Positions 3,483 to 12,137 of a DNA stretch of 25,994 nucleotides are shown piece by piece. The translations under genes and the position numbers were made by a program. The notes under the pieces were generated by a model. That model saw only the letters and a list, made by a program, of their open reading frames with translations, made no database searches and was not told where the DNA came from. Numbering within the stretch: position 1 is the first letter of the stretch; every line of letters begins with the position of its first letter. Where the stretch lies: the IMG/VR virus record IMGVR_UViG_3300025592_000061, positions 1-25,994 of that record; one strand, given 5' to 3'. This stretch comes from a virus.

Positions 3483-3671
3483 ATGTCTACTATTACTTAT
3501 TTCCCATACGAACAAGAACTCATAGAATTCTGCGAAACTGTCGATGTTTCTGATTATAAACCATCTAAAAACTGGGGCGGTTGGAAGGTCATCTCCAATG
3601 TATATTTAAATCCGATCCATCATTATATGCAGGCCGAACAACAACATTTCCATCAAATAATTTATTCATAA
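3483..3671 (+). CDS. Putative small late ORF (62 aa, MSTITYFPYEQELIEF...), antisense-overlapping the methyltransferase 3' end
   Basis: Late promoter, SD and ATG are correctly spaced. No recognisable domain. Confidence 0.4.
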   Translation: MSTITYFPYEQELIEFCETVDVSDYKPSKNWGGWKVISNVYLNPIHHYMQAEQQHFHQIIYS

Positions 3672-4155
3672 TAATAATCGCTCGACCAGTTTTAGTTGTT
3701 TTGTCTGTAATTTGATAAGAATGAGAATACTCTTCCTCAAAATTAATTTTAACCTCTGTGTGGCCAGGATCGTCATAAAAAACTTCTTTGAGTTTAGGAG
3801 TTGGAAACGTAAAAACAATATTTTCACATATCCTTATTGCCTCATTTACAAATATTTTTTTCTTATCTGGATCAATATGTTCTATAACTTCACTACACCA
3901 TCCCCATTCCCAATGATTATCTTCAAAATGAGAACCTTTTGTTAAATCCATTACATGATCTACTTTTGGAGGCGCACCACGAATATCTAACGCTCGATAC
4001 TCTCCCCCAATACCAAGTCTCCCTTTCAGAACACCCTTATATGGACAATTTACACCAGAACCAATATCCAATATAGATCTTCTTCCTCTTGGTGGAAGAA
4101 ATAATAAAAAATATCGTATAACATTTTCTATATTTTTGTGTTCAGTTACATTCAT
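3589..4155 (-). CDS. Class I SAM-dependent methyltransferase
   Basis: ILDIGSG motif I, LDIR after strand 2, CSEVIEHI, VFTFP. ATGA overlap with the gp43 C-terminal gene. Confidence 0.8.
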   Translation of the reverse strand: MNVTEHKNIENVIRYFLLFLPPRGRRSILDIGSGVNCPYKGVLKGRLGIGGEYRALDIRGAPPKVDHVMDLTKGSHFEDNHWEWGWCSEVIEHIDPDKKKIFVNEAIRICENIVFTFPTPKLKEVFYDDPGHTEVKINFEEEYSHSYQITDKTTKTGRAIIIMNKLFDGNVVVRPAYNDGSDLNIHWR

Positions 4156-9111: not shown

Positions 9112-9119
9112 TATTTATA
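9112..9119 (-). promoter_or_regulatory. Late promoter box TATAAATA overlapping the stop of the upstream gene
   Basis: Plus strand tatttata at 9112-9119. Confidence 0.5.
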
Positions 9120-10479
9120 TATTAACATCATTAATAGAATCAAATTTACTTGTATACTTTCTATCATAATCAAGGACTTTAAATTTTACTTCTATTCTTG
9201 CCCCATACTTTTCTTCAATCGCTTCTGTATAAAAAAGGATAGATTTTTCTAACTCTACTTGTACTTTACTCCATCCTTTCTTTGATGTCCTATCTGGATG
9301 CTCAATCAAGGTTTCAAATGTCATATCTTCTTCAGGCTTTTCGAGTACAAGAAAATCCCAAAGATTTTGTTTTATCAACCTTTCTTGATCGCTTTTAAAA
9401 GATAAAACCTTATAATTATCTGTTGTATTTTGACTTATGTAATCATTCTTCTTTTGAATCAATCTATCTTCTTCACTCCAACCATTTTTTATTCTCCCCT
9501 TTCCTATTGATTTTTCTTCATCATTAATCTGTGTAGCCTTTTTTAATATTGCCCTGACCGTGTGCCCATGAAATTTACCCAAAGCTTTAAAATGAAAAAA
9601 GTTAGCATCAGAATTTATTTCAATTTTATCTTCTTTTAATCTTGATATTGCGAGTTTAACATAATGGTCATGTCCAGTTGGAGTAGAAAGTACTGTTTCT
9701 TCTGGATTTAAACCTCCACTAAGTTCTTCAATTTGAAGTTCTGTAAAAGGTTTCCCTTTCATTGTCCACAATTTTTTATCAATTAACATTAATTTCATTG
9801 AAGCATCACTCAAATTATTTTTATATTTTTTTGTTAATGCTAACGCACCCAATATATGAGAATGACCTATTCTTTTATGTTTCTTTTTACCATTATAATC
9901 TTTAAGAGTTGGAACGGGCAAAACTTTTTTTAGTTCTTCATCACCAAATTCATCAATTTTCTTAGCAATCTTTCTTTTTTGGCCAGGAACAAATCCTCCA
10001 GGCCTTGGTTGATAATAATCTAAAAATGCTATATACTCCGCATTTGAATCTATAATTGTAATACCATCTACATTTTCTCCTTTACCAACTCTATCAATTT
10101 TATTCAATAATTCTAATACAGCATCATCTTTTTTATTCACTTTTGAACCTCCATTTGTTTCATTAAAATATTCTAAATTTTCTTTTGCATTTACCGCAAG
10201 TAAATGTCTATTTTCAGCACGCCAAATGTCATCTTTGCACTTTGTTAAAAACATTATTATTGTTATTGTTACCTTATTATTATAAAAATCTCGTTCATAT
10301 TCTTCTAGATGAGTTACTACACTACCATAATACTCATCACGAATTGCAAGTTCTCCTTCTTTTCCACCACCATACTTATGTCTTAACTTACCACTATGAA
10401 TTTTAACTTCATACACATAACCATAATAATGTTTTGGTTCTTCTATACCATCTTTAAATTTATATTTAACATTATGCAT
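9115..10479 (-). CDS. Large protein with a degenerate N-terminal GIY-YIG-like domain and possibly a ParB-like middle domain; start reassigned to ATG 10479
   Basis: GYVYEVK...KYGGG...EYYGS and AEN..LL...AKEN.EYFNETNGG resemble Seg-like GIY-YIG proteins. The track's TTG start at 10563 would run through the tRNA. Confidence 0.6.
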   Translation of the reverse strand: MHNVKYKFKDGIEEPKHYYGYVYEVKIHSGKLRHKYGGGKEGELAIRDEYYGSVVTHLEEYERDFYNNKVTITIIMFLTKCKDDIWRAENRHLLAVNAKENLEYFNETNGGSKVNKKDDAVLELLNKIDRVGKGENVDGITIIDSNAEYIAFLDYYQPRPGGFVPGQKRKIAKKIDEFGDEELKKVLPVPTLKDYNGKKKHKRIGHSHILGALALTKKYKNNLSDASMKLMLIDKKLWTMKGKPFTELQIEELSGGLNPEETVLSTPTGHDHYVKLAISRLKEDKIEINSDANFFHFKALGKFHGHTVRAILKKATQINDEEKSIGKGRIKNGWSEEDRLIQKKNDYISQNTTDNYKVLSFKSDQERLIKQNLWDFLVLEKPEEDMTFETLIEHPDRTSKKGWSKVQVELEKSILFYTEAIEEKYGARIEVKFKVLDYDRKYTSKFDSINDVNI

Positions 10480-10491
10480 TCTATTCTCTGT

Positions 10492-10561
10492 TGGAGCGAG
10501 CAGTTGGCTTCGCACCAACCTCTTCAGAATGGAATTCCAAAGCGTTCTAATAACTACTCGC
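10492..10561 (-). tRNA. Non-canonical tRNA-Gly(UCC), 70 nt, with encoded CCA
   Basis: GCGAGUA/UGCUCGC acceptor stem, discriminator U, CCA. Anticodon stem UUGGA/UCUGA with loop AU-UCC-AU (anticodon 10533-10531). T-stem GUUGG/CCAAC with loop UGCGAAG. Shortened D-arm. Confidence 0.85.
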
Positions 10562-10568
10562 AATTATA

Positions 10569-11402
10569 TCAATTGTAAAATTTATCAAGGGTTGATGGAA
10601 TTTTCTTATTGTATTTAGCACTCTCAAACGTAAATGGTGGGCATTCTTTTAGAGTTTTTTTATTCTTCATATCTGTAACATCAACCCATTCCAATTGTTT
10701 ACTTTTTGGATAATTTTTATCCCAATTCATTGATGATTCTCTCAACATCATTCTTTTAGCTTTCTTATTCAATGGATAAAGATAACGAAACATTAGACCA
10801 TTGATTCGTTTGATACCCTTGTGTTCCATAAAATCAGTAGTCATCCAGAATACTCTTTCTTTACCAGAAAATTCAGCATTTTCTTTACACAATTCTTTTG
10901 ATGTTCGTGGATGTAATTTTTCTCCGTTCTCCATCAAATATACTGAAGTAAAATATTGCTCTCCGTAATAAAAGTTTGATGCTTGATAAACAAATCCGCA
11001 CTTGCCCATAATACCATCTGCCATTGTATAGAGGAATTGACACGTTGTGTTGTTTTTCAACCACTTAATAGTAGAAGAAACCATCTGACTTCCAGCGCCT
11101 TTAGTATCATTGAGGTCTATTGTCAAACACATCTTTCCGATCTCATAATACCAATCGTTTATATCATGTATAAAATTTTCATCTTTTTTTTCTAAAATCC
11201 CAACATTCGGAAACATCTTATTGAAAGTATGTCTTGGTTTAGTGCCCCATCCCAATGTCAAGGCTCCCTTCAATTCACCATTCAAAAAAAAACCAAGATA
11301 GTGCTTTGTTATGGCGGGCATTACTGGTGAGTAATGATATTTCTGAACAAAATTTGTAGCGAGAGTTTTATCTATTTCTATTACTTCAAATTCAAATTTC
11401 AT
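10569..11402 (-). CDS. mom: Mom-family (GNAT-fold) DNA adenine modification enzyme
   Basis: FVQKYHYS, G.F..GEL.GA.T.G, YEIGKMCL, SQMVSSTIKWL and ADG..G..G.VYQASNFYYG match the Mom-family pattern as I recall it. Confidence 0.8.
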   Translation of the reverse strand: MKFEFEVIEIDKTLATNFVQKYHYSPVMPAITKHYLGFFLNGELKGALTLGWGTKPRHTFNKMFPNVGILEKKDENFIHDINDWYYEIGKMCLTIDLNDTKGAGSQMVSSTIKWLKNNTTCQFLYTMADGIMGKCGFVYQASNFYYGEQYFTSVYLMENGEKLHPRTSKELCKENAEFSGKERVFWMTTDFMEHKGIKRINGLMFRYLYPLNKKAKRMMLRESSMNWDKNYPKSKQLEWVDVTDMKNKKTLKECPPFTFESAKYNKKIPSTLDKFYN

Positions 11403-11829
11403 TTTTTATAAATGATAAAGTTTTATCATCCTCATATCGAATTAATGTTACTTCTGGATAATCCTTAGACATTTTTAATAAATTTTCAAAAATAGTCCAT
11501 CCAGGCCCGCCACAAATTATAAATGCTTTTGTATAAAGTCTAGAGAGAATTTTTTCTTTCAATGTCCACATTTCATATCCAACCTTTTCTTCAGTTGTAC
11601 CACCTGTATTTTGTAATTTCACAGAAACAATTATTTTTGAATTAACTAAAATATCTACTATATGTTTATGATTTCTAAACTTATTACCAATAGTTACTTG
11701 TTCTGATATTTCACATCCATCATATTTTCTTAATATAGTTGCTATATGTTTTTCAAATTCTTTTCCACTATGATACTCATCGGTAACAATATCATTACCG
11801 AATACATCTATTTGACCAGTTTTATACAT
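11392..11829 (-). CDS. PD-(D/E)XK restriction-endonuclease-like nuclease
   Basis: SGKEFE helix, VDILVN, then IVSVKLQNTGGTTEEKV (S-x-K variant plus QxxxGxxxEK). Overlaps the mom start by 11 nt. Confidence 0.7.
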   Translation of the reverse strand: MYKTGQIDVFGNDIVTDEYHSGKEFEKHIATILRKYDGCEISEQVTIGNKFRNHKHIVDILVNSKIIVSVKLQNTGGTTEEKVGYEMWTLKEKILSRLYTKAFIICGGPGWTIFENLLKMSKDYPEVTLIRYEDDKTLSFIKNEI

Positions 11830-11859
11830 ATTTTTTCAATTCTCATTAAGGTATATGTC

Positions 11860-11888
11860 ATTATAACAAATTTTAGTAACATTGTCAA
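11860..11888 (-). promoter_or_regulatory. Sigma70-like promoter for the nuclease-mom-tRNA cassette
   Basis: AAAAC-TTGACA (11888-11883), N17, TATAAT (11865-11860). Confidence 0.78.
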
Positions 11889-11891
11889 GTT

Positions 11892-12137
11892 TTAATTGAG
11901 CTTAAATTTTCTGTCTACTAATCTGACCTCACTTTGGCCTTGATCATAGATATATACTTCTTTGATTGGGCCGTCAATGTTCTTGTCCCAATAATTTAAA
12001 AACTTAGTTATACGTGGAAATTCTGGTATTTGGTCTTCTGTCTGCCACACAAATTCATTCACAATATGTAAATAATCTGGAATGTAATATACTACTTGAA
12101 CTGTAGCAACTGTCCATTTGTGCAAGATATATGCCAA
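11892..12137 (-). CDS. Usg-like protein
   Basis: T.QVVYYIPDY.H....FVWQ..D..PEFP....FL.YW...IDGP matches the Usg family pattern as I recall it. Confidence 0.7.
   Translation of the reverse strand: MAYILHKWTVATVQVVYYIPDYLHIVNEFVWQTEDQIPEFPRITKFLNYWDKNIDGPIKEVYIYDQGQSEVRLVDRKFKLN

Follow-up and report, generated by a model that had tools for sequence, protein, structure and literature searches.

We describe herein a short gene cassette in a viral contig (record IMGVR_UViG_3300025592_000061, analyzed over its entire length of 25,994 bp and hereafter called the window), in which the gene for a small restriction-type nuclease overlaps the gene for a Mom-family DNA hypermodification enzyme. Comparative genomics suggests that the two products could form a restriction-modification (R-M)-like pair, wherein the nuclease cuts unmodified DNA and Mom replaces the methylase. 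We give this proposal an even chance of being correct. For the nuclease family as a whole (Pfam PF20472), a restriction-type function tied to N6 modification of adenine is very likely. Nearby genes, including regA, clamp-loader and sliding-clamp genes, a uvsX-like recA, and hsp20, identify the source of the window as a T4-like marine myophage.

The cassette lies on the minus strand and begins with a sigma-70-type (T4-like early) promoter at 11860..11888. This promoter matches the consensus at 12/12 positions (TTGACA, a 17-nucleotide spacer, and TATAAT, with a TG extension), is the sole 12/12 site in the 8-14 kb interval of the window, and is retained in the related locus L039. Downstream is the open reading frame (ORF) for the 145-amino-acid PD-(D/E)XK nuclease (11392..11829), which includes the motifs VDILVN, SVKLQ, and GTTEEK, followed by the gene for a 277-amino-acid Mom-family GNAT protein (10569..11402; PF25680). 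The nuclease stop and the mom start overlap by 11 nucleotides (11392..11402, ATGAAATTTGA), and overlaps between the two genes are retained in L005, L006, L007, L009, L039, and L251. No Shine-Dalgarno sequence was found upstream of the mom ATG. Because this start codon lacks a ribosome-binding sequence of its own and resides within the overlap, we infer that translation of mom is coupled to that of the nuclease. Seven nucleotides past mom is a 70-nucleotide, noncanonical tRNA-Gly(UCC)-like RNA with an encoded CCA (10492..10561). A first-pass annotation made from the sequence alone had proposed this arrangement, and its placement of the promoter, the nuclease ORF, and the overlap proved accurate, with the two Pfam matches now supporting the protein assignments. 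The RNA that it called a tRNA is likewise supported by covariation, though it is noncanonical. A megablast search of the region against phage records returned no match.

Several lines of evidence make an active restriction-type endonuclease the most likely identity of the 145-amino-acid protein, as predicted from its sequence and modeled fold. It matches PF20472 (PDDEXK_11) with 37.5 bits (cut-off 23.7), as do 18/18 members of the family alignment A1, and it also belongs to phrog_6124. Conserved residues include E26, H56, D59, S69-x-K71, Q73, and G77-T-x-E80-E81-K82. Among 24 diverse family members, some from genomes that carry no modifier gene near the nuclease, E26, D59, S69, K71, Q73, G77, T78, E80, E81, K82, and E86 are invariant. 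These residues supply the catalytic set of the fold, in which helix 1 contributes E, strand 2 contributes D, strand 3 contributes (S/E)-x-K, and the next helix contributes an acidic residue. The combination of S-x-K with an acidic residue on the following helix resembles the arrangement in the Cfr10I/NgoMIV/Ecl18kI group, and the family profile matches R.Ecl18kI with an E value of 0.0014. An AlphaFold model (pLDDT 80.8) includes the alpha-beta-beta-beta-alpha-beta core. The top match of this model in the PDB is BstEII (Z 10.2, rmsd 3.6, 135 residues aligned), and BsaWI, PspGI, SgrAI, and NgoMIV come next, with Can2-type nuclease domains ranked among them. The closest named structural clusters in the ESM Atlas are BanI (TM 0.74) and DpnII-family restriction endonucleases (REases; TM 0.67-0.68). 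PADLOC and NCBIfam yielded nothing for either the nuclease or Mom, and no match was obtained when plasmids were searched with a bacterial member of the family. A predicted Mom-nuclease complex scored 0.01, which is uninformative either way.

The neighbors of related nuclease genes were compared at about 60 loci drawn from IMG/VR, phage records, and one bacterial metagenome-assembled genome (MAG). In most lineages examined, PF20472 genes adjoin adenine-N6 modifiers, and these modifiers come from four unrelated families. Mom is the neighbor in the window and in L039, L005, L006, L007, and L009. A D12/Dam-subfamily methylase is found beside the nuclease in Synechococcus phages ACG-2014b/g, S-RIM50, and S-RIM12, in L029, and in the Chloroflexi MAG (L119); this partner methylase matches TIGR00571 with an E value of 1e-76. 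A PF05869 Dam enzyme is present in L030-35 and L038, and L007 carries a PF01555 methylase in addition to Mom. No neighboring modifier was observed in L008, L010-18, L025, and L036/37.

In a maximum-likelihood tree, the Mom-linked nuclease genes constitute a single clade with 99/99 support. This clade includes L009, whose nuclease and Mom proteins are 46% and 45% identical, respectively, to those of the window. Given that nuclease-Mom adjacency spans the clade down to L009, the pair has been co-inherited over a long period of divergence. An exhaustive PF20472 profile search gave 571 matches, from which nine further representatives of clusters at 50% were chosen blind to their neighbors. Seven of these nine reside beside a modifier (D12 in three cases, PF01555 in two, PF05869 in one, and Mom in one). 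The nuclease-Mom pair in L251, on a 52.7-kb record, is divergent: its nuclease is 36% identical to that of the window and falls in another subclade, and its Mom is 24% identical. Thus, the pairing arose at least two times independently. The first-pass annotation had suggested that co-occurrence with mom would speak for an R-M-like pair and that homologs found mostly without mom would speak against it. Although Mom pairings occur in two independent lineages, most homologs indeed lack mom. However, those homologs are located beside Dam-type methylases or in genomes free of GATC, and this strengthens the R-M logic rather than breaking it.

The GATC content of carriers follows the distribution of modifiers. 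Loci without a neighboring modifier contain 0-1 GATC each versus 13-35 expected, with one exception found later (L254, discussed below). When six modifier-less lineage representatives are summed, there is 1 GATC versus 176 expected, and GATC is the sole one of the 16 palindromic 4-mers that is purged in all six lineages. Carriers with a linked modifier have 219 GATC versus 482 expected. Genome G006 (161 kb, 96% complete, loci L161-L169) has only 2 GATC versus 584 expected and encodes a family member with intact catalytic residues; no Mom, D12, PF01555, PF05869, C5 methylase, or TGT gene was found in it. In a control set of 80 regA-anchored T4-like loci without the nuclease, 5/80 had one GATC or none and the median observed-to-expected ratio (O/E) was 0.6, which rules out GATC purging as a general trait of modifier-less marine phages. 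Locus L028, at one time considered an exception to the rule, was set aside as such after a Dam gene was found 1.1 kb away. The window itself has 77 GATC sites (O/E 0.62), similar to the background among related phages.

Taken together, the purging of GATC and the presence of Dam partners point to a nuclease that is directed at GATC and sensitive to N6 modification of adenine. The genome of any carrier of such an enzyme would have to be either modified or free of GATC. We therefore regard GATC as the probable target of PF20472 nucleases, albeit with moderate confidence.

A plausible mechanism for the window can be outlined. The nuclease would be made early in infection from the consensus promoter, on one transcript with Mom, and would cut DNA that lacks N6-modified adenine, most probably at GATC, in the DNA of either the host or a co-infecting phage. 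The phage's own DNA, which retains GATC, would be shielded by a glycine-derived group placed by Mom on adenine N6. Mom would thereby occupy the role of the Dam-type methylase that partners PF20472 nucleases in other phages, and, through the overlap of the frames, each translation of the nuclease would be accompanied by translation of Mom. As in a type II R-M system, the endonuclease gene of the window adjoins a DNA-modifying gene, but this modifier has the GNAT fold and is not the S-adenosylmethionine (SAM)-dependent methyltransferase of that system type.

By homology, the Mom protein of the window is predicted to be a glycyl-tRNA-dependent adenine-N6 hypermodifier. Its ORF matches PF25680 with 157 bits (E 6e-46), and 5/7 residues important in Mu Mom are kept (H58, Y59, S124, D149, and Y159). 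The Mu enzyme moves glycine from Gly-tRNA-Gly onto adenine N6 at sites called SAS (Silva et al. 2026, PMC13219725); that report does not discuss gene neighbors. In the window, no modifier other than Mom was seen close to the nuclease, and no recognizable DNA methylase was found in its 26 kb. A 188-amino-acid protein encoded at 3589-4155 on the minus strand carries a class I SAM-methyltransferase-like motif (LDIGSG ... SEVIEHI) and has no Pfam match at E 0.001. It was considered as a candidate DNA methylase and rejected, given that its SAM motif is of the small-molecule type and that it is unlike the PF05869 Dam enzymes.

The position upstream of mom is a hot spot in sister phages, where it hosts various restriction and modification genes, and every cassette type that occupies it opens with a 12/12 promoter equivalent to that of the window. 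In L040, L041, L050, L064, L067, and L077, the slot holds a gene for a 169-amino-acid protein, and the stop of this gene and the start of mom share an overlap of 11 nucleotides. An REase-like ORF together with a PF01555 methylase is found there in L042 and L044, two methylases in L053, and a methylase plus the PF20472 nuclease in L007. The slot is empty in L046. A small conserved hairpin, AGGGATTGACCCTT, is located approximately 30-45 nucleotides upstream of the first cassette gene in L040, L042, L044, and L067. In these otherwise different cassettes, the hairpin lies after the consensus promoter and ahead of the first gene.

The 169-amino-acid family (for example, L040:2002-2511; alignment A3) is unrelated to PF20472 and has no Pfam model. 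Its invariant residues are E42, P61-D62, and E71-x-K73. A structural model with a pLDDT of 91 matches PDB entries that are nearly all type II REases, including NaeI (Z 10.2), ThaI (8.7), NhoI (8.3), and DpnI (8.0). Members are found less than 3 kb from mom, on either side of it, in 11/36 of the family's loci. A complete 72.5-kb genome with this family contains no modifier of the families searched, and no purged 4-mer that could serve as a clue to the target of these proteins is uniform across lineages. The family is abundant in marine viromes, where it accounts for 142 clusters.

The tRNA-like element is a real structured RNA. Neither ARAGORN nor Rfam called a tRNA in the window, but eight homologous copies support a common cloverleaf in which the D arm is short, the anticodon stem has 7 bp, the anticodon reads NCC, and CCA is encoded. 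In the eight-copy alignment, the cloverleaf is 99.4% paired with six compensatory pairs, a result matched by 0/500 shuffles, and the compensatory changes affect the anticodon and T stems. Most copies have the anticodon UCC, whereas the L042 copy, which ARAGORN recognizes as tRNA-Gly, has ACC. A covariance model places the RNA after mom in 18/81 loci (the window, L039, L040, L041, L042, L044, L046, L064, L007, L079, L087, L091, L092, L097, L098, L101, L105, and L106), most of which are nuclease free, and detects none in the nuclease-plus-Mom loci L005, L006, and L009. Because the RNA follows mom with or without the nuclease and is absent from these three loci, it is best viewed as an accessory of Mom and not of the nuclease. 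Thus, the first-pass proposal of a three-part system of nuclease, Mom, and tRNA does not hold as an obligate arrangement. Its core, a nuclease paired with Mom, is favored by the modifier neighbors, the purging of GATC, and the second REase-like family in the same slot.

Several observations weigh against the pairing as formulated above. The PF20472 nuclease is present in only 4/80 of the closest Mom loci, and most Mom genes have no nuclease at all. Even close relatives of the window carry mom with another upstream gene or with none, as in L046. The depletion of GATC is commoner in the Mom-locus set (17/76) and in the 169-amino-acid family set (15/35) than in the regA-anchored control. L254 breaks the rule, as it has a family member, no visible modifier, and 17 GATC, on a contig that ends 540 nucleotides downstream. 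In addition, the known genome amounts to 26 kb, and a Dam gene located elsewhere could be the real protector.

DpnII is GATC specific and Dam sensitive, and the proximity of DpnII-family clusters in the ESM Atlas counts in favor of GATC as the target, but the sequence comparisons with DpnII are weak. The nuclease family has no match to the Pfam DpnII model (PF04556) up to E 10, and in HMMER searches with a 142-sequence family profile, DpnII scores no better than shuffled sequences. Profile-to-profile comparison by hhalign gives a weak local E value of 0.011 over 98 columns, and comparison of the family with a single DpnII sequence gives 0.084. The DpnII used was taken from a classical DpnM-DpnII-DpnA operon (L157), and the motifs align in the same order. 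We consider homology between the two nucleases to be a lead only, as suggested by these alignments.

The weakest step in the argument is the assignment of Mom, rather than an unseen Dam enzyme, as the protector in the window phage. This is because the Mu site does not cover GATC and because two residues essential in Mu differ here. Specifically, SAS excludes the adenine of GATC (PMC13219725). Moreover, Mu R111 is replaced by K and the essential R151 by I in the window protein, and in Mu, R111K causes strong impairment and R151A abolishes activity (PMC13219725).

Among the alternatives, the one that survives best is that a GATC nuclease is protected by a Dam enzyme encoded elsewhere in the genome, while the sole role of Mom is evasion of host restriction and the adjacency reflects an R-M hot spot. 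The widely varying cargo of the slot among sister phages (L042, L044, L053, L007, and L046) fits this explanation, as do the expectation that a Mu-type SAS specificity would miss GATC and the fact that the 26 kb available represents only part of a genome with a probable length of about 150 kb. However, nuclease-Mom adjacency has been kept from 99% to 45% protein identity within one clade (to L009) and occurs again in L251. Furthermore, the nuclease has no visible neighboring methylase in the window, L039, L006, L009, or L251, and a second, unrelated nuclease family overlaps mom in the same manner without a methylase. Overall, we judge an unlinked Dam protector to be unlikely.

Another explanation is that the nuclease gene is part of a selfish cassette for a homing endonuclease or another mobile endonuclease, which brought its own promoter and was inserted between usg and mom, with no functional dependence on Mom. 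The presence of the nuclease does differ among near-identical relatives (the window and L039 versus L046, L040, and L050), the cassette does start with its own consensus promoter, and PD-(D/E)XK homing enzymes are among the weaker fold matches (I-Bth0305I, Z 7.4; I-Ssp6803I, Z 6.2). Chance insertion nonetheless leaves unexplained both the modifier neighbors of four families in many lineages and the GATC purging in modifier-less carriers, and the link to modifiers and GATC speaks for a site that is short and frequent, not for a long homing target. Because R-M modules are themselves mobile, mobility is also compatible with an R-M-like pair. A purely selfish cassette is therefore quite improbable. 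We find it very improbable that the protein is instead a repair or recombination nuclease, or an RNase that processes the tRNA-like transcript or host RNAs: the nuclease domains of Can2, Card1, and Cdn1 score near the REases (Z 9.1-9.2), the gene sits in a replication/recombination module, and the tRNA-like RNA is co-transcribed, but family members occur beside Dam methylases without this RNA, L005, L006, and L009 have nuclease and Mom without it, and neither an RNA-directed nor a repair function predicts the purging of GATC.

A broader interpretation can also be advanced, although we do so tentatively and would sooner expect it to fail in some part. PF20472 nucleases may be a phage family of GATC-directed mini-restriction enzymes, for which self-immunity is provided interchangeably by Dam, by Mom, or by loss of GATC. 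Mom would then be a true methylase substitute, the adenine within GATC would have to be a substrate of the marine Mom clade, in contrast to the SAS specificity of the Mu enzyme, and REases could be swappable upstream of one broad-spectrum protector.

A few other features deserve mention. Two small ORFs beside PF20472 nuclease genes (L013:4414-4890 and L007:1073-1669) have PvuII-like D..E-Y-(K/L) motifs that were recognized by eye, and have no Pfam match. Genome G006 avoids other words in addition to GATC, including GGCC (9 versus 287 expected) and AGCT (63 versus 558 expected), and lacks the 6-mers AGCGCT, CCGCGG, and CCTAGG. The window as a whole has 0 CGCG sites versus 11 expected. Just upstream of the cassette, at 11892-12137 on the minus strand, is a gene for an 81-amino-acid Usg-like protein (PF06233, E 7.5e-20) that is conserved in the lineage; this family is unusual for a phage. 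Downstream, a 482-amino-acid ORF at 9115-10563 on the minus strand has no Pfam or PHROG match, and contains a stretch (YGYVYEV...KYGGGK) with a vague resemblance to GIY-YIG. Because its annotated start falls inside the tRNA-like element, the true start is probably the ATG at 10479. L039, with a mom gene 99% identical to that of the window, lacks nearly all of this ORF, which indicates an insertion or deletion.

R-M systems normally serve in host defense, with the methylase acting as the antidote. In the window, the restriction half appears to be encoded by a lytic phage, with a tRNA-dependent hypermodification as the antidote. If so, the newly solved chemistry of Mom would gain an offensive role, in the breakdown of host DNA or the exclusion of rival phages, beside its defensive one, and a new sequence specificity for Mom would be predicted. 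The extreme avoidance of GATC by some marine phages could likewise be understood as protection from their own nuclease. The cassette would also offer a compact, 145-amino-acid GATC-type enzyme and a natural nuclease/Mom/tRNA arrangement that are directly testable in Escherichia coli.

The general logic has precedents among viruses. T4 EndoII and EndoIV, with hydroxymethylcytosine in the phage DNA, and the chlorovirus R-M pairs such as CviAI exemplify viral nucleases that degrade unmodified host DNA while modified viral DNA is spared. To our knowledge, however, EndoII and EndoIV are not site-specific REases of the PD-(D/E)XK type, and the protecting base in T4 is made before replication, whereas the chlorovirus pairs use methylases.

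Closer parallels exist with R-M systems of the DpnII/MboI type, in which a D12 Dam methylase is combined with a GATC endonuclease that is blocked by N6-methyladenine. Relatives of the window nuclease adjoin D12/Dam-subfamily methylases, the DpnM-DpnII-DpnA operon exhibits the same gene logic, and GATC is purged from unprotected carriers. In contrast, the window nuclease has 145 amino acids versus about 285 and lacks the N-terminal half of DpnII, it is encoded by lytic T4-like phages, and its partner in the window is a GNAT protein rather than a methylase. The Mom/Com system of phage Mu offers a further comparison. The window Mom belongs to the same family as Mu Mom, shares about 28% identity with it along the aligned length, and keeps most active-site residues, with replacements at R111 and R151, and its chemistry is presumed to use Gly-tRNA-Gly. 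Mu mom is a late, stand-alone gene controlled by Com whose product acts at SAS, whereas the window gene resides behind an early-type promoter, is coupled to a nuclease, and is followed by its own tRNA-Gly-like gene.

The concept of Mom acting together with an REase has been proposed previously. Jumbo phages encode Mom domains fused to REase-fold domains, for which a protect-and-attack logic was predicted (Iyer et al. 2021, Viruses 13:63, PMC7824862), and our literature search found no experimental test of this prediction. What is new here is an unfused and, by our inference, translationally coupled form in ordinary T4-like marine phages. Also new are the two nuclease families that alternate in one slot, the pattern by which PF20472 carriers have Dam, Mom, or a loss of GATC, and the GATC specificity that this pattern implies. 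The logic would be the same as for the jumbo-phage fusions, with phage DNA shielded by momylation and host or superinfecting DNA open to attack by the linked endonuclease. The architecture differs, because here two separate, overlapping genes are found in marine T4-like phages of ordinary size, two unrelated families of nucleases alternate beside mom, and a dedicated tRNA-Gly-like RNA is present.

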